From an uncultured Methanosarcinales archaeon (GTDB lineage Archaea; Nanobdellota; Nanobdellia; Woesearchaeales; GW2011-AR9), in the NCBI GenBank assembly GCA_964429715.1, contig CAYSCV010000001.1:1-41377 (forward strand): a stretch of DNA of 41,377 bases, given 5' to 3'. Of the stretch, positions 169-37,515 are shown piece after piece; position 1 is the stretch's first letter; each line of letters begins with the position of its first letter. A program made the position numbers and the translations under genes. Under the pieces are notes generated by a model. It saw only the letters and a program-made list of their open reading frames with translations. It was not told where the DNA came from and searched no databases.

Positions 169-192
169 GGTCTTAGGGTGGTTTTTATTGTT

Positions 193-1680
193 ATGACTTA
201 TACTAAACGGGCTATACGAGGTTCTGCACTTATTTTTGTTATAGGAATTATTGCTTCGGCAATTAGTTATGCAACAATTGTGTTCCTGGCACGAAGTTTA
301 GGAACGCATGATTATGGTTTATTTAATTCAGTGTTTACGTTTGTTCTTTTTTTCTTGTTTTTTCGGGATTTGGGGTTGCCGCAGGCGCTCACTAAATATA
401 TTGTTGAATATGGGACACAGAAAAAATATGATGAGATTAAAACAGCTATTGTTGCGGTTTTTTCTTTTGAATTATTCAGTTCTTTGCTGATTGCTCTCTT
501 TTTCTTTTTTTCGGCAGATTTTTTAGCAGTGGTTTATTTCAAAGATCCGTTATCTGCTTTTATGTTAAAATTGTTGATTGTTTATTTATTTGGAAGTGTT
601 TTTTTCGGCACGTTTAAGGATATATTCTTAGGTTTTCAGCAGATATTTTTATTTTCGTTTACTGAATTTATGAAGAATATATGTGTATTTTTGTCTGTTT
701 TGTTATTTGTTTATATGGGTAAAGGTCCACTGGCACCGGTTTTAGCTTATGTTCTTACTAGTATAGTTATTTCTTTATTCTTTTTACCTTTTTTCTGTAG
801 GAAGTTTAATTTTTTCGATTATAAAATTACTAACTTTCATACGATCTCTCGTAATCTTTTCTTTTTTTCTTTGCCGGTTTTTGCAACAGCAGCAGGAGGT
901 AAAATAATAGCATATGTTGATACGTTATTATTAACCTATTATCGTTCTTTATCGGAAGTTGGAATCTACAATGCAGTTCTGCCAACTTCAATGATTTTTA
1001 CACATTTTGTTGCTGGGGCGATTGCGTCTATGGTTTTTCCTATTTCCTCTGAATTGTGGTATAAAAATGATGTAAAAAAGTTAGCAGAGGGTGTACGTTT
1101 ATTGTATAAGTATCTCTTTATGTTTACTATCCCTGTGGTGTTTCCGGTTATTGTTTTTGCTCATTATTTTATACTCCTTTTTTTTGGAGCTTCTTATCTC
1201 CCTGGAGTTTTGGCGTTCCAAATTTTATCTGCAGGTATGTTCTTATGGACTTTGGCAAGTATAAATAATAATATACTTACAGCTATCGGGAAGCCAAAAG
1301 AAGTGATGAAGATTATTTTTTACGCCGCGGTGCTTAATCTTGGTTTAAATTTGATTGTGATACCTATATATGGGATAGAAGGAGCAGCTGTTGCAACAAC
1401 TTTAAGTTATGTTATTGGATTAATCCTTTCTACTTTTAAATTGTGTTCGATTTTGGGATTATCTTTTCCATGGAAACAGTGGTTACTATTAGGCATTCTT
1501 GCTACTATTTTTAGTTTTGCGATGTTTGGGGTTATGCAGTTTATTCATTGGCCGATACTTCTTTCGATTTTAATTAGTATTTTAATCTCGGTTATGATTT
1601 ATGTGATGTTACTTTTTTGTTTTCGACTGATTGATATAATTGAATTAAAGAAATATCTCACATTAGTATTTCAAAAATGA
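193..1680 (+). CDS. Wzx/MOP-family oligosaccharide (polysaccharide) flippase
   Basis: About 495-aa protein made almost entirely of hydrophobic helices. Length and composition are typical of polysaccharide biosynthesis/flippase (Wzx, RfbX-like) proteins, and it sits in a glycan locus. The track ORF starts at GTG 178. ATG 193 fits the upstream TATA-like box better. Confidence 0.7.
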   Translation: MTYTKRAIRGSALIFVIGIIASAISYATIVFLARSLGTHDYGLFNSVFTFVLFFLFFRDLGLPQALTKYIVEYGTQKKYDEIKTAIVAVFSFELFSSLLIALFFFFSADFLAVVYFKDPLSAFMLKLLIVYLFGSVFFGTFKDIFLGFQQIFLFSFTEFMKNICVFLSVLLFVYMGKGPLAPVLAYVLTSIVISLFFLPFFCRKFNFFDYKITNFHTISRNLFFFSLPVFATAAGGKIIAYVDTLLLTYYRSLSEVGIYNAVLPTSMIFTHFVAGAIASMVFPISSELWYKNDVKKLAEGVRLLYKYLFMFTIPVVFPVIVFAHYFILLFFGASYLPGVLAFQILSAGMFLWTLASINNNILTAIGKPKEVMKIIFYAAVLNLGLNLIVIPIYGIEGAAVATTLSYVIGLILSTFKLCSILGLSFPWKQWLLLGILATIFSFAMFGVMQFIHWPILLSILISILISVMIYVMLLFCFRLIDIIELKKYLTLVFQK

Positions 1681-1687
1681 GGGGAAA

Positions 1688-2986
1688 ATGGAAGAATTCA
1701 CTCAATATAAATTGGTTTTAAATGTACTAGGCCAAGAAAAGGTTAGATATTGTGTGTTACGTAATTTTTCTTTTCTTGAGGAGGAGAGAAATCCTGCCAC
1801 TTCCGTGGAAAGGAGCGTGGATATTAGTGTCCATTCTCAGGATTACATAAAATTACATGATATATTTATCCGATGCGGTTTTTTAAGGAGAAAAGATCAA
1901 TTTTCATTAAAACATAAAGCGTATTTTAAATTAGTTGGGAAAAATGTGGTTAGTTTTGATGTCCAGGTAGGCGGTATATATTGGAATGATATGGGTTATT
2001 TGGGCGATGATATTTTTGATCGGCGGTTGAATAAAACATATTTTAGTGTTCTTTCAGAGGAAGATTCGTTTGTGATGTATGTCCTGCATTCTATACTTGG
2101 GAAGAGACGGTTTAAACAAAAATATCAAGAAGTCTTATTATCCCTCTTACCAAGAGTGAATACTAAAGCAGTTATACTCCAATTTTCTGTCGTGTTCAAT
2201 ACTTCAATTGCGCAATGGCTTTATCGAAAAGTTTCGGAAGGAAAGTTTGAGGAAATATTGCGTTGGAAATACTTTTTAATCTCATATTTTATTTTATGTT
2301 CTCCTCAACATTTGATTACTTCATTTCTGTTGCTCGGACGATGGATCAAATGGAAGAAATTTTGTACGGCGTATCCTTTGATTAGTGTTATTGGTCCGGA
2401 TGGGGCGGGAAAATCGACTCTGATCAAATTGTTGGAGGAGCAGTTGAAGCGTTACAACCGTAAAGTTTGTGTTATTTATACGGGGCGGGGACGGTCTCAA
2501 ATAATCCCGATTAGAACAATTGGGAATAAATATAAACATAAAGAGAAACGGAATGATACGAAAGTAAGAAGTTCTGTTTTATCTAAGAAATTGATCTATA
2601 CTTTATGGGCATTTGTGTCTGCTTTTGATTTACTGTTGCGATATTTTTTTAAGATTATGTCGGCACGAAGGAGAAGGACGATTGTGTTAACTGATAGATA
2701 TTGTTCTGATATTTTTTTGATGAAGCATGTGCCGTTGTTTTTGAAGAAATGTTTATTACGATTGTTTCCCAAACCAACTTTGACGTTTTATTTGTATAAT
2801 TCAGTTGAGGTGTTACATTCTCGTCGTCCTGCGGAAACAGTTGAAGAGTTAGAACGGCAGATGGTTCTTTTTGGTTATTTAGAGCAGTATTTGCATGCGT
2901 ATGCAATACAAACGGATAATTTAGATGTAACTGAACAAGAGATTATTCAAGAAGTGATGGAGTTTATGTATAGAGAGTGGTATTGA
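1688..2986 (+). CDS. Uncharacterised two-domain protein: nucleotidyltransferase-like N-terminal domain plus thymidylate-kinase-like P-loop domain
   Basis: Walker A VIGPDGAGKSTL is followed by a DRY-type motif (IVLTDRYCSDIF), as in dTMP/deoxynucleoside kinases. The N-terminal ~220 aa carry VDISVHSQDY and SFDVQV segments reminiscent of uncharacterised nucleotidyltransferase (NTP_transf_5-like) domains. GAGGGG SD lies upstream. Collinear paralogue of 36135..37490. Confidence 0.5.
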   Translation: MEEFTQYKLVLNVLGQEKVRYCVLRNFSFLEEERNPATSVERSVDISVHSQDYIKLHDIFIRCGFLRRKDQFSLKHKAYFKLVGKNVVSFDVQVGGIYWNDMGYLGDDIFDRRLNKTYFSVLSEEDSFVMYVLHSILGKRRFKQKYQEVLLSLLPRVNTKAVILQFSVVFNTSIAQWLYRKVSEGKFEEILRWKYFLISYFILCSPQHLITSFLLLGRWIKWKKFCTAYPLISVIGPDGAGKSTLIKLLEEQLKRYNRKVCVIYTGRGRSQIIPIRTIGNKYKHKEKRNDTKVRSSVLSKKLIYTLWAFVSAFDLLLRYFFKIMSARRRRTIVLTDRYCSDIFLMKHVPLFLKKCLLRLFPKPTLTFYLYNSVEVLHSRRPAETVEELERQMVLFGYLEQYLHAYAIQTDNLDVTEQEIIQEVMEFMYREWY

Positions 2987-3035: not shown

Positions 3036-3317
3036 ATGGCTGATTTAAAGAAAAAATATAAAGTGGTATATGATAGGGCGGGTTGTATTGGTGTATTAAC
3101 TTGTAGCGCATTCTATCCCGAACGTTGGGCTATAAGCAAGGATGATGCAAAGGCGGATCTAGTGGGGGGTGTTGAGGATAAAACATCTCCAGGAATATGG
3201 TTATTGGAGTTTACAGAAGAAGAATTAGAACGTTTTAAGTTGTCTGCGGAGTCTTGTCCGGTGGCAGTGATTCATATTTATGATGTTGAGACGAATGAGA
3301 AAAAGTGTGATTGTTAA
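3036..3317 (+). CDS. Small single-cluster ferredoxin, 3-Cys type (likely [3Fe-4S]-like)
   Basis: 93 aa. CIGVLTC (C-x5-C with Val at the position of the usual second Cys/Asp ligand) plus a distal CPVAVIHI (Cys-Pro) is the pattern of single-cluster ferredoxins. Confidence 0.6.
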   Translation: MADLKKKYKVVYDRAGCIGVLTCSAFYPERWAISKDDAKADLVGGVEDKTSPGIWLLEFTEEELERFKLSAESCPVAVIHIYDVETNEKKCDC

Positions 3318-3357: not shown

Positions 3358-4428
3358 ATGTTACCTGTTGATGTAGTAGATTCTTTTGCTTCTTCTAAAA
3401 TACTTACGTTAGATAAAATCTTGGAAATTGTAAAAAAGCTGAAAGAGCAACATACAACAGTTGGCCTCTGCCACGGGGGGTTTGATCTTTTACATCCAGG
3501 CCATATAAAACATTTTGAGTCGGCACGGAAGTTATGCGATGTACTGGTGGTGTCGGTTACATCTGATAGATTTGTTGCGGGCAGAAAAGGTGATGGACGG
3601 CCGGTGTTTTCAGCGCAGCTGCGGGCGTATAGTATTGCGGCATTAGCGTGTGTTGATTATGTTGTTGTGACGGATTTTGCGAAAGGGGTTGAGGTGATTG
3701 AACTATTGAAACCATCTTATTATATCAAAGGGCCTGATTTCATTGGAAAAAATACGCCGGGAATTATATCTGAGCGGGAGGCGATTGCGCGTGTGGGCGG
3801 GGAGATGAAGTATACAATGGATGTGAAGCTTTCTACGATGGAGATTATTTCGTATATTAAGAATGAATTGGATCGCAAGGATGTGCTTGTGGTGCTTGAT
3901 CGTGATGGAACATTGATTGAGCATTCTACAGATTTTTTTGGCCGGCAGGAGAATTGGTGCGAGGAGTTGAAGTTGATTATGCCGGTTGTGAGTATGATTT
4001 CGTATTTGCAGACTCGGTTTAAGGTTATGGCGATTGTGGCGTCAAATCAGGCGGGGGTGGCGCGAGGGTTGTATGATTGCAAGCGAGTTGAGGAAATTCA
4101 TAGGCATATTGATGGGTTGTTGAAAGCGCAGGGTGTGCTGATTTCTTCTTGGAAATATTCGCCGGATGTTGATTTGGTGTATGCTTTAGCGATGAAGGGG
4201 AAGATTGATTTTTTGCCGGCGTTTGTGAAAGAGAAGACGATGCGCAAGCCTGCGATGGGAATGGTTGAGGAGGCATTACGAGAATTGGGGCGGTCGTTAG
4301 GAGATTTTAGTTCTGTGATGGTGTTTGGCGATCAGAAGGAGGATGAGGGATTGGCGGTGAATTTGGGCGGGCTTTTTATTGATGTGAAGGGGAAGACGTT
4401 TGAGGAGATGAAGAGGATAGTGGGGTAA
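3358..4428 (+). CDS. Bifunctional heptose 1-phosphate adenylyltransferase-like (RfaE domain II / HldC-like) plus D,D-heptose 1,7-bisphosphate phosphatase-like (GmhB, HAD) protein
   Basis: N-terminus: GLCHGGFDLLHPGHIKHFESARKLCDVLVVSVTSD, the cytidylyltransferase-fold HxGH signature. C-terminus: VLDRDGTLIE, ASNQAGVARG and RKPAMGM, which are GmhB-type HAD motifs I-III. Confidence 0.7.
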   Translation: MLPVDVVDSFASSKILTLDKILEIVKKLKEQHTTVGLCHGGFDLLHPGHIKHFESARKLCDVLVVSVTSDRFVAGRKGDGRPVFSAQLRAYSIAALACVDYVVVTDFAKGVEVIELLKPSYYIKGPDFIGKNTPGIISEREAIARVGGEMKYTMDVKLSTMEIISYIKNELDRKDVLVVLDRDGTLIEHSTDFFGRQENWCEELKLIMPVVSMISYLQTRFKVMAIVASNQAGVARGLYDCKRVEEIHRHIDGLLKAQGVLISSWKYSPDVDLVYALAMKGKIDFLPAFVKEKTMRKPAMGMVEEALRELGRSLGDFSSVMVFGDQKEDEGLAVNLGGLFIDVKGKTFEEMKRIVG

Positions 4429-5402: not shown

Positions 5403-6623
5403 ATGAGAAGAACATATCTTACGTTGTTGAAGTACTTGGTTGTTACAAAACCTAAGACACCGCTTCAGCTGATTCACTTTGTCACTTCTAAATGTAATGC
5501 GAAATGCGGCCATTGTTTTTATTGGAGTCAGTTAAACACGAAGGGGGAATTATCATTAGAGGAGATCAATAAAATAACGAAAACGTTACCCGATTTGGTT
5601 ATTTTAAACATAAGCGGGGGTGAGCCTTTTATTCGTCAAGACTTCGCGGAGGTTATCAAGACGTATTATCGTAATACTCGACTCAAAGAAGTGACTATTC
5701 CTACAAATGCTACGTTTACGGAGAAAATGCGAGCGGATTGTATTAGTATCTTAGATTATTGCAAAGGAATGGATTTAAATATTGTTGTTTCGTTGGATGG
5801 GATTGAAAAAATCCACGATGAGATACGAGAGGTAAAAGATTGTTTTAAGACTGCACAAAAATCATTTATGATGTTGAAAGAATTGCAACAACAATATCCT
5901 GGTTTACAAGTATCTATTGTTTCGACGCTCACAGCGTTGAATCAAGATACGGTGGAAGAATTTCATCGGCAAATGAATACGGAATGGAAGCCAGATGTGT
6001 TAGGGATGAATTTGATTCGCGGCGAAGCTAAAAAGATGGATTTATTCGGGGTTAATTTAGATAATTACAAAAAATTTTTTGCATTGCAATCTAAATCCCG
6101 TAAATGGAGTTTTAAAAATAAGATTCGTGATTATATGAATAAATTGAGGACGGGTATGATTATTCGGACTGTGGAAGATAAAAAGATGTATGTGCCTTGT
6201 AAAGCGGGAACTTTAATGGGCGTTATGTATGAAAAAGGAGACGTGTACCCCTGTGAATTACTTAATCAACAAAAAATAGGGAATGTTCGTGATTTTAATT
6301 ATGATTTTACCAAACTCTGGACTTCTGCGGCAACTCAAAAAAGTGCTAAATGGATTAAAGATACAAAGTGTTATTGTACTCATGAATGCTTTCAGCGATT
6401 TAATATTTTGTATAATCCTACATTTATGGCGAAGCATGCGGTTAAATCGTGGGTGGGGAAATCAGAGATTATAAATAGTTTGCAATTAAATGATCATCAA
6501 GTGAGTTCTAAAGAAGATCTTATTAAGATTGGGAAGATGAGGGGTATACGAGTAGAACAAAAAGAAGCAGGTGATTTATCTACTCATATGGTTGAGGAGA
6601 AAGAAATCTCTTTGCCAAAGTAA
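5403..6623 (+). CDS. Radical SAM enzyme with C-terminal SPASM/twitch-like Cys-rich extension
   Basis: CNAKCGHCFY is a CxxxCxxC motif and ISGGEPF is a SAM-binding GGE motif. C-terminal PCKAGTLMGVMYEKGDVYPCE and CYCTHEC clusters resemble an auxiliary-cluster domain. Confidence 0.8.
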   Translation: MRRTYLTLLKYLVVTKPKTPLQLIHFVTSKCNAKCGHCFYWSQLNTKGELSLEEINKITKTLPDLVILNISGGEPFIRQDFAEVIKTYYRNTRLKEVTIPTNATFTEKMRADCISILDYCKGMDLNIVVSLDGIEKIHDEIREVKDCFKTAQKSFMMLKELQQQYPGLQVSIVSTLTALNQDTVEEFHRQMNTEWKPDVLGMNLIRGEAKKMDLFGVNLDNYKKFFALQSKSRKWSFKNKIRDYMNKLRTGMIIRTVEDKKMYVPCKAGTLMGVMYEKGDVYPCELLNQQKIGNVRDFNYDFTKLWTSAATQKSAKWIKDTKCYCTHECFQRFNILYNPTFMAKHAVKSWVGKSEIINSLQLNDHQVSSKEDLIKIGKMRGIRVEQKEAGDLSTHMVEEKEISLPK

Positions 6624-6647: not shown

Positions 6648-8264
6648 TTATTCTACTCGTTTTGCGTATACGTCACCAACATTGGTATTATTTAAAGCGT
6701 TTGTAACAAGACGTTTGACGCAGTGATTGAGCACGAGATGATGGATGTCTTCGGCGACTTCCATGTCGTTTACGGTGGCGTGGATGGCGAGATGAGCAAT
6801 GTCTTTGATTTTGCCACCTTTATAACCGCAGATAGCTACGGTTTTGGCGCCAATGGAATTAGCGTATTCCATGGCTTTGACGACGTTTGTGGAGTTGCCG
6901 CTGCCGGAGATACCTATGACCAGATCATCTTTTTTGGCGAAGTTTTTGAGTTGTTCGATGAAGATGTCATCATATGAAATATCATTGGCGATGGCCATTA
7001 ATGCGGGCAGGTTGTCACTTAAGCAGGTGGCTTTAAAGCGTTTATCTAAGCCGTAGGAAACGCCTTTGATGAGATCACCGCAGAAATGAGAGGCGGTTGC
7101 GGAACTACCGCCATTACCAAAAACGTAGATGTTACGTTCGTTGTGATAGGTGTCAAGTAGTAAGCGCACAAATTGGTCGATGTGTTCGATGCTGATGTTA
7201 CTTAATGTATCATTGACGGATGTAAGATAATTTTTAATTTCAATTTTGTAAAGATCTTTGATGAAGTGAAGCAGGCTTGCTTTGTTAATACTTTCTTTGT
7301 TGCCCATGATATTTGCGGCCAGAGCTCCCGCGCAGTTGCCAATGAAAGGGATTATTTCTGGTTCCGCTTTGATATAACTGAGAAGGGCAGTGATGGAAAA
7401 TACGGCGTCTCCTGCACCGATGGTGTCTTTTACTGTAGTGGAGAGAATAGGGGCTTTCATGAGATTACCATTTTGTGCGAATATGGACCCTTCTTTTCCT
7501 AAAGTTACAAGCATGCTTTGATGATTAAGTATTTGGTGGATTTCAGCGATACATTCTGATGCTTTTTCAAAGCGTTTGGAAAACGGGAGGCGTAATTCTT
7601 GTTCATCCATGGTAATGAAATTAAATTTCTTGTAGTTGGTAAAGTAATTGAAGCCCATGTTGGCGCTGTTAGATTGGACATTTAATGCAAGGAATTTGGC
7701 GTTTTTTTCAATGGTTGTTCTGATTTGTTCGTTGATGAAGCCGTGGCCGAAGTCTGCGACAATAACGAGGTCATATTTTGGCAGCTCTTCTTCGAGTAAC
7801 TTACAAATAGATGAAGTTAGTTCAGAATTGATAGGGTTATCATCCATATATTCAATCTTGAATAATTTTGCTTTTTTATAGAAATCAATATATCTTCTTT
7901 TGATAATGGTGGGAGTGTTATTTTTGGTAAAAAAAAAAGGGTTGATGTTCTTTGCGAGATGTTCTGTTATAAATTCTGTTTGAGGTTCTTTATCACCAAG
8001 TAGGGTTATGAGTTTGATGGAGTTGACAAAACTGCTGATATGATTAGCTACGGCAAGAATACCCCCCGCATAGGTTTCTTGTTCTTTGAATTCGGTTGAG
8101 AGAATTGGATCTTTTATAGCACGGCCTTTAAGTTTCACAAATGTGTATTGATCAAGGATGGTGTCGCCGAGAATAAGGACGTTGAGGTTTTGGAGTTTGT
8201 TTAAGAGAGTTTCGATGTACTTAAGATCATAAGTTGCTTGAATTTTTTTAATATATTGTTCCAT
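6648..8264 (-). CDS. Bifunctional PfkB-family sugar kinase (RfaE domain I / HldA-like heptose 7-phosphate kinase) plus sedoheptulose 7-phosphate isomerase-like SIS domain (GmhA)
   Basis: N-terminal ~340 aa have the ribokinase-fold signature DTIGAGDAVF. The C-terminal ~190 aa have GNGGSSATASHFCGDL, ISGSGNSTNV and EDIHHLVLNH, as in GmhA. AAGGTGG SD lies 9 nt upstream of the ATG. Confidence 0.75.
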   Translation of the reverse strand: MEQYIKKIQATYDLKYIETLLNKLQNLNVLILGDTILDQYTFVKLKGRAIKDPILSTEFKEQETYAGGILAVANHISSFVNSIKLITLLGDKEPQTEFITEHLAKNINPFFFTKNNTPTIIKRRYIDFYKKAKLFKIEYMDDNPINSELTSSICKLLEEELPKYDLVIVADFGHGFINEQIRTTIEKNAKFLALNVQSNSANMGFNYFTNYKKFNFITMDEQELRLPFSKRFEKASECIAEIHQILNHQSMLVTLGKEGSIFAQNGNLMKAPILSTTVKDTIGAGDAVFSITALLSYIKAEPEIIPFIGNCAGALAANIMGNKESINKASLLHFIKDLYKIEIKNYLTSVNDTLSNISIEHIDQFVRLLLDTYHNERNIYVFGNGGSSATASHFCGDLIKGVSYGLDKRFKATCLSDNLPALMAIANDISYDDIFIEQLKNFAKKDDLVIGISGSGNSTNVVKAMEYANSIGAKTVAICGYKGGKIKDIAHLAIHATVNDMEVAEDIHHLVLNHCVKRLVTNALNNTNVGDVYAKRVE

Positions 8265-8390: not shown

Positions 8391-9566
8391 TTAATCTAGT
8401 AATTTCTTATTTTCTCGTAAAAATACGGCCCCAACACGTGAAGGAAATCCATAGCAATGAGAAGAAGGGGGGAAAAGAGATTTGAATTTTTGTTGTAATG
8501 TTTCGTCTTCTTTGGTGGTTTTCCAGGTGCCGTTTAAACGTTCGTTCATTTCGATAACCAGATCGAGGATTTCAGCTGGAGTGTTTTCGTGAGGAAAGTA
8601 TTCTTTTTGGGTGTAATCTTTTGTTTCCGTAAAATATTTTCCTTTTTCGAATTCTATGATCTCTTTAAACGTGAGATATCTATTTTCTTTTTTGAACCAT
8701 ATTTTTTTTGGGATGAATATGCTTTGTTTGTTAATAGGAGGGTGGTTTAGAGGTATGACATTTACTAATGCGACAGGATGGTTAAAGATGTAAGGAAGAC
8801 ATATTAAGCCTGCCGTGTCTCCTAAAAAGAATTTACAATTTGCACTAAGATATATGTCTCCAAATTCAGTTCTCCAATTATTGGCGTAATCTATAATTCT
8901 TTTGTTTTCTACGTTTAGTTTCTTCTCTACTTTTGCACCCATCCTTAAAACATACCCTTCTTGTTTGGCGATGTATTCTAATGAGGGGATAGTGTTTTCA
9001 ATATTTCCATTGCGATAATCATCTGATTCATCTCTTTTCTTGAGAACAGTGTCTAGATATTTCTTATCTCGCATATTTACACAGATAAACCAATTATCTA
9101 CATTCATTTTTTTTAATATTTCTTTCCCTTTTTTTTCTTCATTGTCTGTGAATTTTAACATTGGCGGGCAATTGTTAAACTCATAGAAATCATTTACTTT
9201 ATATTTTGGTTCTGTAAATAGATTTAATGTTTTTAAGATAGAATTATTTGCAGCCAGTTGTGTTAAAACTCTTAAGAGTGTTGGAAGAGGTATGGTAATT
9301 ATTTTAAATTTTCGTTGAAACATTTCAAGTAAGGGCTGGTTACATGGCTTTGAAGTTGCTATCCCAATGTGTTTTAGATTACTTCCTTTAATGATGTTTA
9401 ATTCTTTTCTTCTTAAAAAGAGTTCGGTATTGGAAGCTAGGTGACCAATTCTTCTGGATCTTATTCTGATGAAAGTTATTTTTTTAATTTTCTTAAGAAG
9501 TAGTAAAGGTATAATTAATGGAGAAACTATGATACTTGTGCTAATGTAGGTTATTTTTTTGATCAT
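8391..9566 (-). CDS. Putative glycosyltransferase of unknown family (resembles TIGR04372-type proteins), N-terminal membrane anchor
   Basis: 391 aa. The N-terminal hydrophobic helix is followed by RRIGHLASNTE. DYRNGNI, GYVLRMG and IIDYA segments recall the TIGR04372 putative glycosyltransferase family. This is a recollection only and was not searched. Confidence 0.35.
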   Translation of the reverse strand: MIKKITYISTSIIVSPLIIPLLLLKKIKKITFIRIRSRRIGHLASNTELFLRRKELNIIKGSNLKHIGIATSKPCNQPLLEMFQRKFKIITIPLPTLLRVLTQLAANNSILKTLNLFTEPKYKVNDFYEFNNCPPMLKFTDNEEKKGKEILKKMNVDNWFICVNMRDKKYLDTVLKKRDESDDYRNGNIENTIPSLEYIAKQEGYVLRMGAKVEKKLNVENKRIIDYANNWRTEFGDIYLSANCKFFLGDTAGLICLPYIFNHPVALVNVIPLNHPPINKQSIFIPKKIWFKKENRYLTFKEIIEFEKGKYFTETKDYTQKEYFPHENTPAEILDLVIEMNERLNGTWKTTKEDETLQQKFKSLFPPSSHCYGFPSRVGAVFLRENKKLLD

Positions 9567-12347: not shown

Positions 12348-12833
12348 TTATTTGACTCTGTTTTTATCTTCTTTGAGACTGATAAAGACGGGGCCGATAT
12401 GGTTGTGTGCGGCTTTGACAAATTGTTCGGTTTCTTTGCCGTTTTTGGGAAAGAAAGTATGGGTGTTTTTGAGCAGGCCCATGAGAATTTTACCGTTTAA
12501 TTCGGAATGGGTGGGGCCTTGTTTGGGGTAATCGGCGTAACCAACTAATTTAACGTTGACGTTCTGCTGGTCTATATCTAGTTTTACTTGTTCGAACGGT
12601 CGTTCGATGAGGAAAGGTGTGATGGTGTAGACCCAGGGTTTTAGGCCTTCTAAAGCCATGCCGGCGGCAACACCAATCATACTTTGTTCACAGATGCCAA
12701 TGTTAATGAAACGGTTAGGGAACTGTGCACGGAATTTATCAAATACTTTGTAGCCAATGTCTCCGACGATTAAGTAGAGATCTGGATCTTCTTGTGCAAG
12801 TTTTGCGATGGCTTCTCCGAATGTGTATCTCAT
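12348..12833 (-). CDS. Transketolase-like C-terminal subunit reduced to the pyrimidine-binding (Pyr) domain
   Basis: NIGICEQSMIGVAAGMALEG and GPTHS motifs. The protein ends just after the GPVFISL equivalent of the end of the Pyr domain. It is 161 aa and lacks the usual ~120-aa TK C-terminal domain. Confidence 0.7.
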   Translation of the reverse strand: MRYTFGEAIAKLAQEDPDLYLIVGDIGYKVFDKFRAQFPNRFINIGICEQSMIGVAAGMALEGLKPWVYTITPFLIERPFEQVKLDIDQQNVNVKLVGYADYPKQGPTHSELNGKILMGLLKNTHTFFPKNGKETEQFVKAAHNHIGPVFISLKEDKNRVK

Positions 12834-12871
12834 GGTATTTTTATTTTTTGGTTATTTTTTTTTTAATAAGT

Positions 12872-13627
12872 TTATTCTTCTGATAATTCTTTGTAGGTGG
12901 TGGTGAGTTCTTCACCTTTAGGCATGCGGGAATGCCATTTTGCGTCGTCTTCAAAACAACTGATGCCTTTGCCTTTTGTGGTGTGGGCAAGGATAACAAA
13001 TGGTTTTTCGTTGGAGGTGTTGTGTAATGCGTTTGTGAGTTCTTCAAATGAATGGCCGTTGACTTCTTGAACGTGCCAGCCAAATGCGCGCCATTTTTCT
13101 GCTAAATTGTGTAGTGAGAGGGCTTCATTGATTCTGCTTAGTGCTTGAATTTTGTTGTAGTCGATGATGACAGTTAGGTTATGTAGTTTATGATGAGCAG
13201 CGATCATAGCACTTTCCCAGGTTGTACCTTCTTGGCATTCGCCATCAGACATGAGGACATATATTTTTCCGGGCGTTTGTTTTATTTTTCGTGCAAGAGC
13301 CATGCCAGTTGAGATAGGAAGGCCGTGACCTAAACTCCCTGTTGTGCAGTGGATGCCGTTTTTTGGATCAATTTCAGGATGGGTGCCAATATGCGGGTTG
13401 AAGCCTTTTTCACGTAAGAGGAGGTAGTAGGGGAATGAGGCGTGGCCTTTACTTAAGACAAATTTGTCTTCTGGTTTTAAGATGAGTTCGTAGATAGTAA
13501 GAAGGATTTCGATTTGGGATAAGCTGCCACCAATATGAGCTTCTTTATGTTCTAAGCAGAGGTCAATGAAGTCTTTTCGTAATTTTTTTGCTTTTTGTTC
13601 GAGATGTTGGATCGAGGAATAATTCAT
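12872..13627 (-). CDS. Transketolase-like N-terminal (ThDP/PP-binding) subunit
   Basis: SKGHA, GSLGHGLP and the ThDP motif SDGECQEGTTWE...DYNK. Length is 251 aa. Confidence 0.8.
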   Translation of the reverse strand: MNYSSIQHLEQKAKKLRKDFIDLCLEHKEAHIGGSLSQIEILLTIYELILKPEDKFVLSKGHASFPYYLLLREKGFNPHIGTHPEIDPKNGIHCTTGSLGHGLPISTGMALARKIKQTPGKIYVLMSDGECQEGTTWESAMIAAHHKLHNLTVIIDYNKIQALSRINEALSLHNLAEKWRAFGWHVQEVNGHSFEELTNALHNTSNEKPFVILAHTTKGKGISCFEDDAKWHSRMPKGEELTTTYKELSEE

Positions 13628-13736: not shown

Positions 13737-15446
13737 TTAATTGAGTAATTTTTGGAAATGGTTTTCTTTGATGTAGTTGAGCATGTCTTGTGCTTTTTGG
13801 AGTTGGGCTATTTTTATTTCTTCGTTTTGGGGTTGGTTTGCAAAATTGCGGCGCGATTGATGGTGTGATACGAATTCGTTTAGGATTATCAGGCACCAGA
13901 TTAGGCCGACTAGGGGGAAGACTATACTGATTCGTTGTTTTAGCTCTTGGTTGTTGAATGTTTCTATTATTTTTTTGGCGAATTGATTCTTTTGTGTTTG
14001 CGAGAGATTCATTGCGGGGTGGAGGATGAAGTCTGAGATGGTTTTGGCAGGATCGTCATAACCAAAATATTCGAAGTCGAGGAAGATGATGTTATTATTT
14101 TCAATTCGCAGGGCGTTATGGAAGCCAAAGTCGCAGGGGCTGAGGATAGTTGTTATGATTTTCTGGTCTTTAGTTGTGTTGATTTGGTTGAGTTGGTTGA
14201 GTTGGTTTTGTAATTTTGCGATGGTTTCATTTAGGTAGGGGATGTATTGATTTTCTAGGAATGAGTGCATGGTGTTTTCAATATCAGTTGAGTTTGGTGT
14301 TTCTTTAAGATGTTTTAATCTGCGGTTAATGATGTTGAGGTAGTCTTGTATACAGAAGCAGGCGTCGGAAGCGTCTTGGAATGTATCTTTTGGGATGTTT
14401 AGGTTGTTGATATTTGTTAGAAAGTTAATGGCAGCATTGATGTCTTGTTCTGTTATGTCTTTTGGGGTGATTTTCGTTCCAGCTATGAATTGGTAGATGG
14501 CGATGTTATTTTTTTCGTCTTTGGCAATTGGTTTGGGGATGGATTTTATGTTATTGTTCCAGAGAAATTCTAAGCTTGTGTATTCTGTTTGTAGACGATT
14601 TCGTTTGTCGTTTGGATGGGTGTAATAGGATTTTAGGATATATTTTTGGTTATTTGAGGTTGTGAGAAGGTATACCTGATTATTTTTTCCACCATCTAAT
14701 TTTTGTATGTCTTTTATTTCTTCGTTTAGTAATTGTTGAGATAGGAATTTTAATTCTTCTCTTTTTATGTTTGTTTGCTCGTCTTTTGTTATGATCTGTG
14801 TGATTATTTCAAATGAGGGGGCGATGATTAGGTTGGTTTGATTTGTGGTTGGTTGAGTGTTTGTACTTTCTTTATTTTTGAAGTGAGGATTGAATAGTAT
14901 TTTTTTTGTGTCTTGCGGGAAAGTTGATTCTTGGAAGGTTTCTTCGAGGTCGTCGATGAAGTGGGTGCACTGAAGTGTTTTTATACGTTCTATTTTTCGT
15001 TCTTTGGTTGGTTCGAAATAGACTTGATTTAAGGTGAGGGTGAAATGGGGGTTATTGAAGAATTGTTGTTGGTTTAGCCAGCTGAGGGCGGATTCTTGAA
15101 GGTTGGCGCCGCCTTGGAGGAGGTTTGAGTATTTGGTTTTATGGCTGATGATGTAGTAGGTGATTTTTTGTTGGTGGCAGGCTGCGAGGAGTTCTTTTAT
15201 GCCTGGGGTGAGTGTTGCTTTCGAGATAGCGGGGCCGTAGGCTTGGGCTTGGATTTGCTGCCATTTGATGTCGCCATCAGGGAGAATTCTTATGGTGTTG
15301 CGTACGGCTTTTTTGTTTTTGGGTGTTTCTTTTGGGATGAATGATTTTTCGAGGGCGAGGTCGTACATCAATTGGTCGTAGTTGATGATGGTGTTATCAA
15401 AGTCGATGCCGAGGATGATTTGATTTTTGAGAGGTTGATTGGTCAT
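13737..15446 (-). CDS. HAD-like phosphatase domain fused to an aminoglycoside/choline-kinase-fold (APH-like) kinase domain
   Basis: N-terminus: GIDFDNTI (DxDxT HAD motif I). C-terminus: CDFGFHNAL (D-x4-N catalytic loop) and FLDFEYFGYDDPAKTISDF (DFE metal-binding motif). The linker is rich in N, Q and T. Confidence 0.6.
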   Translation of the reverse strand: MTNQPLKNQIILGIDFDNTIINYDQLMYDLALEKSFIPKETPKNKKAVRNTIRILPDGDIKWQQIQAQAYGPAISKATLTPGIKELLAACHQQKITYYIISHKTKYSNLLQGGANLQESALSWLNQQQFFNNPHFTLTLNQVYFEPTKERKIERIKTLQCTHFIDDLEETFQESTFPQDTKKILFNPHFKNKESTNTQPTTNQTNLIIAPSFEIITQIITKDEQTNIKREELKFLSQQLLNEEIKDIQKLDGGKNNQVYLLTTSNNQKYILKSYYTHPNDKRNRLQTEYTSLEFLWNNNIKSIPKPIAKDEKNNIAIYQFIAGTKITPKDITEQDINAAINFLTNINNLNIPKDTFQDASDACFCIQDYLNIINRRLKHLKETPNSTDIENTMHSFLENQYIPYLNETIAKLQNQLNQLNQINTTKDQKIITTILSPCDFGFHNALRIENNNIIFLDFEYFGYDDPAKTISDFILHPAMNLSQTQKNQFAKKIIETFNNQELKQRISIVFPLVGLIWCLIILNEFVSHHQSRRNFANQPQNEEIKIAQLQKAQDMLNYIKENHFQKLLN

Positions 15447-27633: not shown

Positions 27634-27657
27634 GCAATTATTGACTCGAAATTGTAT

Positions 27658-28731
27658 ATGGATGAGGCTGTTATTGGTATTAAATGTATTAAAATTGGTT
27701 CTAGGTTAGTTGGTTCAGGTTATCCTACTTTTATTATTGCGGAAGCGGGTGTGAATCATGATGGGAGTATTGAGAAAGCGAAAAAGATGATTGATGTGGC
27801 GGTGGCGGCAGGAGCTGATGCAGTTAAGTTTCAGACGTTTACAGGGGAGACTCTTGCGTCTAAAGATGCGATGCTGGCAACGTATCATAAGAAGGGAGCG
27901 GTATCGGAGCAGGAGACATTAAAAGAGTTGTTGAAGAGGTTGGAATTAAATAAAGAGCAACATAGAGTTTTATTTGAGTATGCGCGCCAGCGAGGAATTA
28001 TGATTTTTTCAACACCGTTTGATGAGAAAAGTGTTGATATTTTGGAGGAGTTAGGGGTGGATTTGTATAAAATTGCATCATTTAGCCTTACGAATTATCC
28101 TTTGTTACGACATATTGCAAAAAAGAATAAACCAATGGTTATGTCGACGGGATTACATACATTAGGAGAGATTGAAGAGGCAGTTAAAGTTATCTATGAA
28201 ACTGGCAATACTCAATTAGCGTTATTACATTGCACTTCTCATTATCCGATTACGGCGGCGGATGCAAATTTACGAACAATGAATACGTTGCGTTCGGCTT
28301 TTGATGTGCCGGTAGGATATTCTGATCACACGATGGGAATTACGGTGACGTTAGCTTCTGTGGCGATGGGGGCGACTATTGTTGAGAAACATTTTACTTT
28401 AAATACACAAGATAGAGGAGTTGATCATGATGCGTCAATTAGCCCTGCGGAATTATATGGGTTAGTTCAAGGGATTCGGGATATTGAAGCGGCGATGGGA
28501 ACGTCACGTAAGGTAATTCCACAAATTGAGAAAGAAATTCAGAAAGTACATCGGCCGAGTCTGGTTTCTACAGTTGATATTCCGGCTGGAGTGGTACTTA
28601 CGTCAGAGATGGTTGGTATTAAAAAACCAGGAACAGGGATTCATCCTCGTGATCTTGCTTGGGTTATTGGGAGAAAAGCAACAGTTGCGATTGAAGCGGA
28701 TCGTTTGATAAAAAAAGAGGATTTGGAATAA
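27658..28731 (+). CDS. Nonulosonic acid synthase (NeuB/PseI/LegI family) with C-terminal SAF domain
   Basis: FIIAEAGVNHDGSIEKAKKMIDVAVAAGADAVKFQTF, HCTSHYP and SDHT metal-ligand motifs, and a SAF-like C-terminus. The track ORF starts at TTG 27652. ATG 27658 is more likely. Confidence 0.85.
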   Translation: MDEAVIGIKCIKIGSRLVGSGYPTFIIAEAGVNHDGSIEKAKKMIDVAVAAGADAVKFQTFTGETLASKDAMLATYHKKGAVSEQETLKELLKRLELNKEQHRVLFEYARQRGIMIFSTPFDEKSVDILEELGVDLYKIASFSLTNYPLLRHIAKKNKPMVMSTGLHTLGEIEEAVKVIYETGNTQLALLHCTSHYPITAADANLRTMNTLRSAFDVPVGYSDHTMGITVTLASVAMGATIVEKHFTLNTQDRGVDHDASISPAELYGLVQGIRDIEAAMGTSRKVIPQIEKEIQKVHRPSLVSTVDIPAGVVLTSEMVGIKKPGTGIHPRDLAWVIGRKATVAIEADRLIKKEDLE

Positions 28732-28735
28732 TCAA

Positions 28736-29785: not shown

Positions 29786-29799
29786 GGGGTTAATTTACA

Positions 29800-35940: not shown

Positions 35941-35989
35941 ACTTTTTCCGGAAAATACTTTTAAAGAAGACCATCCGTTGGGCAACTCT

Positions 35990-36112
35990 TTATTACTCGC
36001 TGGGTCAATACCCGGTTGCTCTGCAACGATTCCAGCGAGTAATGAACGGAGAGCCGTCTTGGAAAGCGGCGTAATACCCCGCAGCTCTGCTGCGATTGGG
36101 ATAGCCGCTTTC
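35990..36112. repeat. Tandem pair of nested inverted repeats (hairpin-in-hairpin units); candidate structured RNA or REP-like element
   Basis: Unit A: 35990-36003 pairs with 36032-36045 (14 bp, one G-T), with inner gttgc-tct-gcaac at 36015-36027. Unit B: 36062-36070 pairs with 36104-36112 (9 bp), with inner cgcagc-tct-gctgcg at 36080-36094. Loop segments are conserved between units while the stems differ but stay complementary. Confidence 0.6.
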
Positions 36113-36134
36113 AGGCTCGACAGTTTATTTTCTT

Positions 36135-37490
36135 TCAGGTCAATACTATTTTTTCCCATGCTTTTTTAATAATCTGTGTGGTATTATCCTTGGTTTTTTC
36201 TTCTGTCTTTAAGATTGTTGACTCTAATTTTTGGTGTAGTATATCATATTTTCTTGTCTGTTCATCTATGTCTTCTTTATGGTGTACTGTCCTTATGTTT
36301 GAACGAGTAACAGTTGTAGAAAAAATTGCGGTATTTTTATCTCTGTTTGTTAATGTTTCAATTGGGGCGGTTAGGATGTATGTGAAATCTGGTTTGGGAA
36401 ATATTTTTAGTAACATTGGTTGGATTATACTTTTTTCAGCGTAGGCGTGTTGTGCATAATTGTCGTAGTAATATCTGTCAGTAATTATGACTTTTCCTTT
36501 TCTTAATGAGGGATATATATGGATGAAATATCTGGTTAGGTAATCAATAAATGTATATAATATAATTATCTCTTTAAACAGATTAAAAGAGGATTTTTCA
36601 TTGAGATAGTTGTATGAACCTTTTTTTCCTTGTATTTTTTGGGCGATTTTGGTTGTGGGGAGGATAGGGTCCCAACCAAAATAATATCCTATCTCTCCAT
36701 GAAAATGTGATGTAATTGGTTTACATTTTTCAAATAGATTGTTGGCAAGTGTTGTTTTTCCACTTCCATTTGGTCCTATTATTGCAATCATTATTCCTTT
36801 TCGTTTCCAAGAAAATGGTCTACCTATTTTCAAAATACCTTTTTTGAGGATATAGGGGAGGAGAGCTGGTTTATTCATTATTTTCATTATCCAGGTCTTT
36901 ATGATTAGATCGGATGGTATTGGTCCTAACGGCAATCTAATTACTTGATCAAAACTGTTCTTCCATCCGTTGTTACGAATTTGAGATTGAATGTAGCTGA
37001 GATCATATCGATTAATTGCATTTGGACCTATTTGATCAAAATAGTTCTTTTCTTTTTGCGTTATTTTAAAATTTTCAAATAGAACGTGGCCGGCATGAAT
37101 TAGAATGGAATCTTCTGTACTCGGAATAATGATTAATGGGTTGATAGTCTGTTTGTGTTTAAATAGGGGGGCTTTCTCTAAAGCTTTTATACCATGCCAG
37201 GCGACTTCACGATGGAGATGGATGGAACAAATATCATTATTGATAATTGAACAATACATCTGTTTATATATCTCTATTTTTTCAGAGAATCTTAGTTTAA
37301 ATCCATTTCTGACTAGTATTTCTCCGGCAGCATAATAATCTGTGTCATTTTCAAACAGAATATCTAGATTTTTATTCTGTCCGGCAAAGATGTGTTCGCA
37401 TTTGAAGAGGAGGTAACTTAATTTTTCTGTATGGAATAAATTTAATACTTGCATTATTCCTGGGGGTGTTTGAAGATATTTTTGATTCAT
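36135..37490 (-). CDS. Uncharacterised two-domain protein: nucleotidyltransferase-like N-terminal domain plus thymidylate-kinase-like P-loop domain (paralogue of 1688..2986)
   Basis: Walker A IIGPNGSGKTTL, DRY-type motif VIITDRYYYDNY, and IFPKPDFTYIL (compare LFPKPTLTFYL in the paralogue). The N-terminus carries NLDILFENDTDY and SIHLHREVAWHG. Confidence 0.5.
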   Translation of the reverse strand: MNQKYLQTPPGIMQVLNLFHTEKLSYLLFKCEHIFAGQNKNLDILFENDTDYYAAGEILVRNGFKLRFSEKIEIYKQMYCSIINNDICSIHLHREVAWHGIKALEKAPLFKHKQTINPLIIIPSTEDSILIHAGHVLFENFKITQKEKNYFDQIGPNAINRYDLSYIQSQIRNNGWKNSFDQVIRLPLGPIPSDLIIKTWIMKIMNKPALLPYILKKGILKIGRPFSWKRKGIMIAIIGPNGSGKTTLANNLFEKCKPITSHFHGEIGYYFGWDPILPTTKIAQKIQGKKGSYNYLNEKSSFNLFKEIIILYTFIDYLTRYFIHIYPSLRKGKVIITDRYYYDNYAQHAYAEKSIIQPMLLKIFPKPDFTYILTAPIETLTNRDKNTAIFSTTVTRSNIRTVHHKEDIDEQTRKYDILHQKLESTILKTEEKTKDNTTQIIKKAWEKIVLT

Positions 37491-37515
37491 GTTGATTTTA
37501 TCTCTTATTTATTTC

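Follow-up and report, generated by a model that had tools for sequence, protein, structure and literature searches.

A thymidylate kinase-fold domain fused to a nucleotidyltransferase-fold domain beside a Wzx-type flippase gene: a candidate phosphotransferase of DPANN glycan loci

What could a protein do that joins a nucleotidyltransferase (NTase)-like domain to a thymidylate kinase (Tmk)-like domain and is encoded immediately behind a flippase gene? The question is raised by an open reading frame (ORF) at positions 1688–2986 (+ strand, stop codon included) of the window, by which we mean the whole stretch of 41,377 nt of archaeal DNA that was analysed. According to the ORF list and its translation, the gene, which we assign to a clade A, encodes 432 aa. 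Its conserved upstream partner is a Wzx-type flippase gene (178–1680, +; Pfam Polysacc_synt, 106.8 bits). Because the wzx stop codon TGA (1678–1680) ends at 1680 and the ATG is located at 1688, the two genes are separated by 7 nt and not by the 8 nt given in a preliminary description, which was right about their closeness and about the Shine-Dalgarno-like GAGGGG (1679–1684, +) that overlaps this stop codon and lies 3 nt 5′ of the ATG. More than 190 full-length relatives of the 432-aa protein were found, nearly all from Woesearchaeota/Nanoarchaeota (DPANN) genomes and with a top identity of 78%; the ORF is a real, strongly conserved gene. The AlphaFold2 (AF2) model of the whole protein reached a pLDDT of 90.8 and a pTM of 0.84.

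Structure prediction followed by Foldseek returned a Tmk fold for the C-terminal half and a pol-beta NTase fold for the N-terminal half. The C-terminal domain (residues 230–432; 2375–2983, +), previously described as thymidylate kinase-like, has the complete Tmk fold. Its best Foldseek match was 2plr, the dTMP kinase ST1543 of Sulfolobus tokodaii, with an E-value of 4.3e-8 and a target TM-score of 0.71 over the whole Tmk chain, and the top 50 matches were dTMP kinases without exception. A profile search against the PDB also matched 2plr (E-value 1.8e-6), and PF02223 was matched by 35 of the 40 orthologues. The 432-aa protein itself stayed below the cut-offs of both PF02223 (22.7 bits, cut-off 27) and TIGR00041 (23.8 bits, cut-off 83.25).

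The Walker A motif or P-loop GPDGAGKST (residues 236–244; 2393–2419, +) and the motif LTDRYCSD (residues 334–341; 2687–2710, +), which comprises the DRY motif and the conserved D341, are located where they had been reported and were scored as invariant in the 40 orthologues, with Asp at D238 in 39 of these. We take D238 to be the acidic P-loop residue that in Tmk contacts the deoxyribose 3′-OH. Among 245 full-length relatives, G236, G241, K242 and R337 are invariant, and D336 and D341 are Asp in 242 and 244, respectively. Arg is found at R318 in 235 and at R379 in 244 of the 245 relatives; the latter belongs to a pair of arginines, R379–R380 (HSRRPAE; 2822–2827, +), that aligns to the lid region of 2plr. 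R267, which belongs to the TGRGR motif following strand 2, is invariant in clade A only, and together with R318 and R337 it is found where Tmk has its phosphate-binding arginines. The domain thus shares with dTMP kinase the G-x-D-G-x-G-K-S-T P-loop with its acidic residue, the whole fold, the Arg-bearing core helix, the DRY motif and the lid arginines, but differs from it by family-specific motifs (YTGRGR, P274, G279, Y282-K283 and E286) where Tmk binds the base and by the obligate fusion to a 225-aa N-terminal domain, whereas the near-universal Tmk is a single-domain protein of ~200 aa. The C-terminus ends in a nearly invariant Trp-Tyr (W431 in 127 of 142 clade A proteins), a clade A-specific feature.

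The unusually long (~95 aa) and partly hydrophobic insert that had been suggested between the two motifs proved to be mostly normal Tmk core, with ~20 residues extra. By alignment count, the P-loop Lys and the DRY Arg are 95 aa apart compared to 76 aa in 2plr, the closest solved Tmk, and the hydrophobic stretch LIYTLWAFVSAFDLLLRYFFKI aligns to a conserved core helix of Tmk located ahead of the DRY strand. The only real length gain relative to Tmk is a Lys/Glu-rich loop (residues ~270–300; 2495–2587, +) with pLDDT values of 64–72 and a length that varies among orthologues. Residues 194–223 and 297–328 were considered as membrane anchors and rejected: no segment of the 432-aa protein has transmembrane hydrophobicity (top KD19 of 1.47), and residues 297–328 form the Tmk core helix. 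The per-sequence KD19 maxima across the family have means of 1.1–1.4, and the linker helices contain Lys/Arg in most orthologues.

The N-terminal domain (residues 1–225; 1688–2362, +) consists of a pol-beta NTase core (~1–112) and a helical bundle (124–223), and its AF2 model reached a pLDDT of 96.3 when predicted alone. The best Foldseek matches, LnuA, ANT(2′′)-Ia and TM1012, were weak (E-values of ~4e-3, target TM ~0.6, query TM ~0.47), as were those to a mimivirus poly(A) polymerase, TglT and FKRP (E-values ranging from 4e-3 to 0.2). PF14907 (NTP_transf_5) was matched at E ≤ 1e-3 by 26 of the 40 orthologues (best 2.7e-7), and the 432-aa protein scored 14.3 bits, below the gathering score of 31.2. 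Both lines of evidence agree with the earlier assignment of the N-terminal ~220 aa to an NTP_transf_5-type NTase fold. To our knowledge, PF14907 ("uncharacterised nucleotidyltransferase") is a family without known function. A profile search with the N-terminal domain retrieved members of this fusion family only; in it, stand-alone N-terminal domains were limited to short, fragment-like chains, mostly from short contigs.

The active site of this domain is incomplete. The DxD position is occupied by the degenerate D45-I-S47 (1820–1828, +): in the alignments, D45 is Asp in 243 of 245 relatives and is the only residue of the N-terminal domain that is conserved throughout the superfamily, whereas position 47 is V, A, T, I, L or S and never D or E in the 245 full-length relatives. 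The alignments place the third NTase carboxylate at D91 (within SFDVQV; 1958–1960, +), which is Asp in 141 of 142 clade A proteins and His in paralogue B (see below) and many distant members. The hG[GS] motif before the DxD strand is replaced by L24-R25-N26, which is invariant in clade A. Compared with PF14907 and small-molecule pol-beta NTases such as LnuA, ANT(2′′)-Ia and TM1012, the NTase core and the D45 and D91 positions are common, but the second Asp is exchanged for S, V, A or L, hG[GS] for L-R-N, and a helical bundle is added. In bacterial relatives, both the DxD (D-I-D) and the third Asp are intact. Residues R25, N26, H76, D91, Q93, W99-N100-D101, H134, K139, R140, K143 and Y146 are invariant in the 40 orthologues, and the helical bundle bears an invariant HSxLGKRxFKxxY motif. 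Because such residues may form a working non-canonical site, the label of an accessory binding module may understate the N-terminal domain.

The genomic distribution characterizes the family as accessory: it is present in 11 of the 151 genomes of the class. All examined homologues are located inside glycan loci, and in 20 of 31 related archaeal loci, counted at species level, the gene is preceded by a wzx gene of the same orientation, which in 14 is directly adjacent or overlapping; stop and start codons of such pairs often overlap. The association with glycan loci and a flippase that had been anticipated from the single locus is strong. The genome encodes its housekeeping Tmk elsewhere, as a 257-aa protein in a thyA-folA-tmk operon on contig C25, and a Cmk candidate on contig C7, so that the 432-aa protein is not the housekeeping Tmk or Cmk. 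With an enzyme-type N-terminal fold, a separate housekeeping Tmk and homologues in glycan loci, the reading of the gene as a glycan-locus enzyme stands.

The window holds a second protein of the same two-domain architecture, paralogue B (451 aa; 36135–37490, −; PF02223, 39.8 bits), which aligned to the 432-aa protein by BLASTP over the full length with 22% identity (E-value 9e-19). Its NTase site is more degenerate, with the sequence NLDILF and His in place of D91, whereas its kinase site is kept. Paralogue B has as conserved upstream neighbour a GT4 glycosyltransferase (37516–38529, −; assigned by Pfam) and as conserved downstream neighbour a 571-aa GT-B-like protein (34444–36159, −), whose Epimerase_2 match of 22 bits is below the cut-off and for which a sequence search of the PDB gave no match; orthologues of the latter show Epimerase_2 and weak Glyphos_transf (TagF-type) matches. 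The trio of GT4, paralogue B and Epimerase_2-like protein recurs in loci L008, L010 and L012, and paralogue B with the Epimerase_2-like neighbour is also found in L015–L018 and L023, with a scored GT4 match in L017 only. Bacterial relatives come from exopolysaccharide (EPS) loci that also contain genes for GT4, Wzy, EpsG and Bac_transf proteins, and they carry a fused GT4 or APH/choline kinase-like domain. For one of them, the protein of L068, an exact-sequence look-up returned no record.

In the most likely reading of these data, the 432-aa protein works in the cytoplasm as a phosphotransferase of a glycan pathway, with the NTase fold as an accessory module. To the fuller scheme, in which a soluble glycan-assembly accessory enzyme of a DPANN (Woesearchaeota-like) archaeon acts as follows, we give a little less than an even chance. 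The C-terminal domain is predicted to be a competent Tmk-fold, ATP-dependent phosphotransferase that would have been recruited from nucleotide metabolism and would have given up dTMP phosphorylation. It would phosphorylate a glycan-pathway intermediate at the cytoplasmic face, presumably either an oligosaccharide linked to its lipid or a decoration precursor that bears a phosphate, as a late step ahead of export of the glycan by the putatively co-transcribed Wzx flippase. The N-terminal domain, an apparent NTP_transf_5-type pol-beta fold with an incomplete canonical three-carboxylate metal site, would most likely serve in acceptor binding and positioning or in a non-canonical second transfer; conventional nucleotidyl transfer is probably not its role. 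Paralogue B and the GT4- and APH-fused bacterial relatives may perform the same chemistry beside glycosyltransferases of their own.

Kinases with NMP-kinase-type folds are known to have been recruited for non-nucleotide phosphates or for the ribose of activated donors, as in animal phosphomevalonate kinase, APS kinase and Cj1415, the Campylobacter cytidine diphosphoramidate kinase, but no specific sequence kinship to these was found, with APS_kinase and related Pfam models matching at the level of the P-loop only (E-value 0.09). The heptose kinases WaaP/WaaY, the kinase domain of WbdD and KdkA share with the proposed function their presence in glycan loci, the cytoplasmic location and the action on lipid-linked glycan intermediates; they have protein kinase or APH-like folds and not P-loop folds. 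Some points count against the scheme. The phosphate-binding arginines retained from Tmk would accommodate a nucleotide or a phosphomonoester no less readily than the hydroxyl of a sugar in a lipid-linked glycan; the protein is without the membrane anchor that a lipid-linked acceptor might require; and adjacency to wzx is a matter of co-expression that says nothing about the order of steps.

More tentatively, and rather unlikely, the superfamily of clades A and B and the GT4- and APH-fused bacterial relatives might constitute an unrecognised class of glycan-assembly enzymes, in which a Tmk-derived kinase would phosphorylate a glycan intermediate that bears a phosphate or a hydroxyl, and the resulting phosphate would be used or decorated by a remodelled domain of NTase fold. 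A precedent for such chemistry is the pseudomycoidin lasso-peptide cluster, in which the P-loop kinase PsmK phosphorylates a residue and the ANT(2′′)-like PsmN then decorates the phosphate (PMC6993621). PsmN is likewise an "uncharacterised NTP transferase", and its only structural relatives, the ANT(2′′) enzymes 5cfs and 4xje, are entries that also match the N-terminal domain studied here. The systems differ in that PsmK is an HprK-family and not a Tmk-fold kinase, in that PsmK and PsmN modify a peptide Ser as two separate polypeptides whereas a single chain is present here, and in that PsmN requires its DxD whereas that of clade A is incomplete. If true, PsmK/PsmN-like chemistry would take place on polysaccharides, and phosphate, diphosphate or phosphodiester substituents would be added to lipid-linked oligosaccharides immediately before these are flipped by Wzx.

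A Wzx-coupled accessory kinase family would suggest that the surface glycans of DPANN archaea are charged (phosphorylated). These organisms rely on surface contact with host cells, and we know of nothing that has been established about their glycans. Exopolysaccharide loci of bacteria, among them cultured strains such as Luteolibacter marinus, encode proteins of the same architecture. Because these carriers are cultured, the function is genetically tractable and would be transferable to hundreds of entries annotated as hypothetical or misnamed thymidylate kinase, an annotation that is unsuitable for members of this family. The statement that no enzyme with this combination of domains had been characterised was supported: neither a characterised member nor a curated NCBIfam model nor a paper on the architecture was found. 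Literature searches on PF14907/NTP_transf_5, on Tmk-like proteins and polysaccharides, and on Tmk, NTase and flippase yielded no more than a passing reference in a phosphonate survey, and a 2024 review of archaeal N-glycosylation does not mention such an enzyme.

The preliminary description had put forward de novo activation, i.e., phosphorylation of a free sugar, alditol or amino-alcohol by the kinase domain and its nucleotidylation by the NTase domain, after the manner of LicA/LicC or HldE, which would supply an NDP- or CDP-linked donor to the GT4 or TagF-like transferases. We consider this possible but unlikely and do not favour it. A kinase and an NTase fold are combined in one chain, in what the AF2 model predicts to be a confident, fixed arrangement (judged by the pTM), and D45, D91 and the invariant D101 of clade A could still bind metal. 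The DxD-bearing bacterial relatives, which are fused or adjacent to GT4 and to APH-like kinases of the small-molecule type, resemble a line leading from kinase through activation to transfer, and in one phosphonate cluster family described in a published survey, Tmk and PF14907 genes flank that of PEP mutase. Against this, the second Asp of the DxD is missing in 245 of 245 archaeal-type relatives and hG[GS] has become LRN, and paralogue B has lost the third carboxylate as well while retaining its kinase site. Such enzymes need the DxD, as the inactivity of the PsmN D134A/D136A mutant indicates (PMC6993621). For conventional activation, the window already has enzymes of its own (PfkB, cytidylyltransferase-like, RmlA-like, CTP_transf_3 and APH-like types), with the parts of an HldE-type system encoded separately at 3358–4428 and 6648–8264. 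HldE, Fkp, LicA/LicC and AmgK/MurU do resemble the present protein in being glycan-locus systems that pair a kinase with a nucleotidyltransferase, and HldE and Fkp do so within a single chain. PfkB, GHMP or APH folds are found in their kinases and HIGH-motif or RmlA/GlmU folds in their transferases, whereas the folds found here, Tmk and pol-beta, are not those of any known sugar-activating pair. We know of no sugar-1-phosphate nucleotidylyltransferase with a pol-beta fold.

Quite unlikely, in our estimation, is a glycan-pathway kinase directed at nucleotides, which would recycle the NMP that CMP-sugar or CDP-alcohol transferases release or, in analogy to APS kinase and Cj1415, phosphorylate a nucleotide-linked donor, with the N-terminal domain binding the nucleotide-linked ligand. 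The retention of the Tmk features D238, R267, R318, R337 and R379/R380 of the lid would suit such a function, as would the abundance of CMP- and CDP-dependent steps in the loci (two NeuB genes, CTP_transf_3, CDP-OH_P_transf and CTP_transf_like). However, candidates for Tmk and Cmk are encoded elsewhere in the genome, and plain NMP recycling requires neither an obligate 225-aa N-terminal domain nor tight coupling to wzx. In addition, R267 is not kept outside clade A, and the base-covering region of Tmk has been exchanged for the family-specific motifs and the variable loop.

The conserved pairing with wzx, the fusion to GT4, the nearly invariant C-terminal Trp-Tyr and the degenerate NTase site could also be read as features of a regulatory or scaffolding NTPase that controls the flippase or a glycosyltransferase in a BY-kinase/Wzc-like manner and does not modify the glycan chemically. 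We regard this as improbable. The DRY Arg, D341, R318 and the lid arginines, positions that in Tmk-type kinases serve acceptor binding and phosphotransfer, are kept throughout the superfamily, which is more than an ATPase switch needs. Similarity to the MinD/ParA-type BY-kinases was not found (there were no ParA/CbiA-type matches, and the fold is that of Tmk), a single terminal Tyr is present in place of a tyrosine cluster, and the C-terminal WY is confined to clade A. That the protein is an N-terminally extended version of the thymidylate kinase of this organism, as the JGI name of several orthologues and the Tmk-like fold and motifs would suggest, is effectively refuted by PF02223 and TIGR00041 scores under the curated cut-offs, by the separate Tmk in the thyA-folA operon and by a distribution restricted to 11 of 151 class genomes and always to glycan loci.

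Two further functions were considered alongside the glycan-pathway phosphotransferase and rejected. An anti-phage defence component was discarded because the PADLOC models gave no meaningful match, with P-loop-level matches of 18 bits alone. A heptose-specific kinase was considered with regard to GT9 heptosyltransferase genes, which are present in 7 of 9 clade A-holding genomes compared to ~11% (Fisher p = 2e-5; related genomes are not independent), and was rejected because NeuB is enriched alongside GT9 (5 of 9 genomes, p = 0.002, again among related genomes that are not independent); the association of clade A is with large glycan islands in general.

The open reading frame at 1688..2986 (+) encodes a protein of 432 aa and is a genuine gene. 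Translation places the two kinase motifs of the preliminary description, GPDGAGKST (Walker A) and LTDRYCSD, at residues 236-244 and 334-341. A Wzx-type flippase gene lies upstream at 178..1680 (+; Pfam Polysacc_synt, 106.8 bits). The GAGGGG noted ahead of the start codon is present (1679-1684), but the gap is 7 nt instead of the 8 nt given there, counted from the flippase stop codon TGA (1678-1680) to the ATG at 1688. A word-indexed search returned 193 proteins at E ≤ 1e-3; among the 120 matches listed, nearly all were full-length, with 40-78% identity. When 1.84 billion representatives were scanned exhaustively with HMMER, 1438 reached E ≤ 1e-3 and 70 reached E ≤ 1e-30. Where a homologue is named, its source is a Woesearchaeota or Nanoarchaeota MAG and its label is 'hypothetical protein' or (JGI) 'thymidylate kinase'. 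Clear orthologues are otherwise restricted to such MAGs, and the title 'uncultured Methanosarcinales archaeon' on many orthologue-bearing contigs (L016, L017, L020, L021 and others) may be a taxonomic mis-assignment. A DPANN archaeon would fit both these homologues and the window's own genome of 1.38 Mb. At one locus an incomplete, diverged extra copy immediately precedes the full-length one (L029:8878-9966); at another the gene is split into two ORFs (L041:1120-2454) and may be frameshifted or a pseudogene.

Taken alone, the protein scores below the cut-offs of PF02223 (Thymidylate_kin; 22.7 bits, cut-off 27), PF14907 (NTP_transf_5; 14.3 bits, cut-off 31.2) and TIGR00041 (23.8 bits, cut-off 83.25). 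At E ≤ 1e-3, PF02223 is matched by 35 of 40 orthologues and PF14907 by 26. An AlphaFold2 model built with 40 orthologues reached a pLDDT of 90.8 and a pTM of 0.84, the sole soft stretch being residues ~270-300 (pLDDT 64-72). The 50 best Foldseek matches in the PDB are dTMP kinases throughout, led by Sulfolobus tokodaii ST1543 (2plr; E 4.3e-8, target TM 0.71), whose whole thymidylate kinase (Tmk) chain is spanned. The N-terminal domain modelled by itself (44 sequences, pLDDT 96.3) has as its closest structures the pol-beta-type nucleotidyltransferases (NTases) LnuA, ANT(2'')-Ia, TM1012, an H. pylori NTase, giant-virus poly(A) polymerases, TglT and FKRP. These matches are weak (E 4e-3 to 0.2, query TM about 0.4-0.5), with no closely similar protein among solved structures, but the fold class is clear. 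The proposed combination of an NTP_transf_5-type N-terminal half with a Tmk-like C-terminal half is thus borne out by structure and profile matches alike.

The partly hydrophobic insert of ~95 aa that had been described between the two motifs proved to be mostly ordinary Tmk core. In the family profile, residues 302-386 align with residues 54-142 of 2plr, and the hydrophobic stretch corresponds to the conserved, Arg-carrying Tmk helix ahead of the DRY strand. Counted from the alignment, the P-loop Lys and the DRY Arg are 95 residues apart, compared to 76 in 2plr; the genuine extra length of ~20 residues forms the variable loop at ~270-300, which is rich in Lys and Glu and modelled with low confidence. 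Because the Kyte-Doolittle mean over 19-residue windows does not exceed 1.47 and the linker helices (194-223) contain Lys/Arg in most orthologues, the protein is read as soluble.

We surveyed residues in the 40 aligned orthologues and in 245 full-length relatives aligned to the family HMM (142 from clade A, to which the studied protein belongs, 43 intermediate and 60 distant). Invariant in the 40 orthologues are G236, P237, G239, G241, K242, Y264, G266, R267, G268, R318, R327, D336, R337, Y338, D341, R379 and Q391. Among the 245 relatives the P-loop G/G/K and R337 are invariant, D336, D341 and R379 are kept in at least 242 and R318 is Arg in 235; R267 is invariant in clade A only. In Tmk these positions contact ATP and the phosphoryl acceptor, so the kinase site forms the conserved core of the superfamily.

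In the N-terminal domain, D45 is the sole universal residue among the 245 relatives. Position 47, where a DxD would have its second Asp, is V, A, T, I, L or S and acidic in none (0/245), L-R-N stands in place of hG[GS], and the third carboxylate, D91, is retained in clade A and often His elsewhere. Bacterial relatives from genomes have D-I-D and the third Asp. Because many further residues are invariant in clade A (R25, N26, H76, Q93, W99-N100-D101 and the motif H134-S-x-x-G-K-R-x-x-K-x-x-Y), the domain is strongly constrained, yet non-canonical as an NTase. A profile search found no N-terminal domain without the kinase domain, save in short, fragment-like chains, mostly on short contigs.

The protein is soluble and has two domains, one bearing an intact phosphotransfer site of the Tmk type and the other a non-canonical NTase fold. 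It would work like a Tmk-type kinase but lies outside the Tmk equivalog; NTP_transf_5 is a relative, although two catalytic signatures of that superfamily are missing. The nearest documented functional precedent is the pair of PsmK, a P-loop kinase, and PsmN, an ANT(2'')-like 'uncharacterised NTP transferase', which phosphorylate a lasso peptide and then add a hexose to the phosphate, for which the PsmN DxD is needed (PMC6993621). Curated models, defence models and the literature yielded no description of the protein; the sole literature mention is incidental, with PEP mutase flanked by a Tmk and a PF14907 gene in a single family of phosphonate gene clusters. Both folds have been described before; the architecture and the role are new. 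The family is well defined and widespread, and unusual chemistry is as yet unsupported.

We tentatively favour a late cytoplasmic phosphorylation, in which the kinase domain would move the ATP gamma-phosphate onto a glycan-pathway intermediate ahead of flipping, and the N-terminal domain would either bind the acceptor or perform a further, non-canonical transfer. Because a phosphomonoester or nucleotide-type acceptor would fit the retained Tmk arginines as well, two alternatives keep some weight. De novo activation of a sugar-type substrate is unlikely; the likeness to LicA/LicC and HldE once suggested for it does not extend to the folds, which differ from those of HldE, Fkp and LicA/LicC-type enzymes. 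A nucleotide-directed kinase, which the same arginines would fit, is quite unlikely. A purely regulatory NTPase is improbable, fitting poorly with the conserved acceptor-side residues.

The gene is accessory and glycan-locus-encoded. As a candidate for the housekeeping Tmk it was rejected: a separate 257-aa Tmk is encoded directly downstream of the genes for thymidylate synthase and dihydrofolate reductase, on contig C25 of the same genome (158 contigs, 1.38 Mb, 87% complete), and contig C7 carries a Cmk candidate. The family is patchy: 11 of the 151 genomes sampled from the class carry it, as do 8 of the 102 that are of high quality. GT9 is found in 7 of 9 genomes bearing the gene compared to 16 of 142 others, and NeuB in 5 of 9 compared to 15 of 142, with enrichment p-values overstated since the bearing genomes are related. 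Because both are enriched, the gene goes with elaborate glycan islands and not with one particular sugar. A same-strand Wzx gene lies upstream in 20 of 31 species-representative archaeal loci (directly adjacent or overlapping in 14); in archaea the gene is co-transcribed with Wzx and probably translationally coupled to it.

The full 41 kb of the window is a glycan island containing, besides Wzx, GT2, GT4 and PMT_2 transferases, Rml-type genes and CDP-OH_P_transf. Downstream in the glycan operon follow a small 4Fe-4S ferredoxin (3036-3317, +; directly adjacent) and a radical SAM enzyme (5403-6623, +); related loci L011 and L013 carry B12-binding radical SAM genes. Heptose-pathway fusions are encoded at 3358-4428 (+; cytidylyltransferase-like and HAD phosphatase, HldC-GmhB-like) and 6648-8264 (-; PfkB kinase and SIS isomerase, HldA-GmhA-like). 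Such fusions are unusual in an archaeon, and a GT9 heptosyltransferase gene lies on another contig (C77:5175-5570). A 391-aa protein without Pfam match (8391-9566, -) matches the NCBIfam TIGR04372 glycosyltransferase family (212.9 bits) and is conserved in the related loci L011, L014 and L021. A split transketolase-like pair (251 and 161 aa; 12348-13627, -) adjoins an APH-like kinase of 569 aa whose N-terminal part shows a weak HAD-like match (13737-15446, -). The nonulosonic-acid block (27652-33455, +) encodes two NeuB paralogues, a CTP_transf_3 and PglD-like acetyltransferase fusion (480 aa) and a DegT aminotransferase and NAD-epimerase/dehydratase fusion (738 aa). Six long-contig orthologues likewise lie, without exception, in comparable loci (Wzx, GT9, PfkB, HAD, CTP_transf heptose genes, STT3/AglB, NeuB). 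ARMT1-like/DUF89 proteins with cytidylyltransferase-like domains (872-910 aa) are encoded at L012:7272-10004 and L010:18379-20997, the former overlapping the start of the studied gene's relative by 4 nt.

Distant full-length relatives (20-26% identity) reside in bacterial EPS loci of Verrucomicrobiota, Geobacteraceae, Acidobacteriota, Gammaproteobacteria, Aquificales and Spirochaetia, where GT4, Wzy, EpsG, Bac_transf and APH-like genes are their neighbours. A GT4 domain is fused to some of these relatives (L046, L076) and an APH/choline-kinase-like domain to others (L055, L066); APH-like kinases are fused or adjacent in L052, L055, L066 and L068.

A paralogue with the same two-domain architecture (36135..37490, -; PF02223 39.8 bits) shares 22% identity over its full length (E 9e-19). 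It forms an overlapping three-gene module (34444-38529, -) with a GT4 gene (37516-38529, -) and a 571-aa GT-B-like protein of weak Epimerase_2/Glyphos_transf similarity (34444-36159, -), and this trio recurs beside relatives of the studied gene in other Woesearchaeota genomes. The pairing of a Tmk-type kinase domain with GT4 would seem to be a recurrent theme of this genome. A second glycan locus (about C77:1719-5080), with GT2 and GT9 genes, encodes a 188-aa Tmk-like protein (PF02223 58.5 bits) with DKY in place of DRY and, beside GT2/GT9, a 340-aa protein joining a GT4 C-terminal part to a Tmk/dNK-like P-loop domain (GMPGAGKTT).
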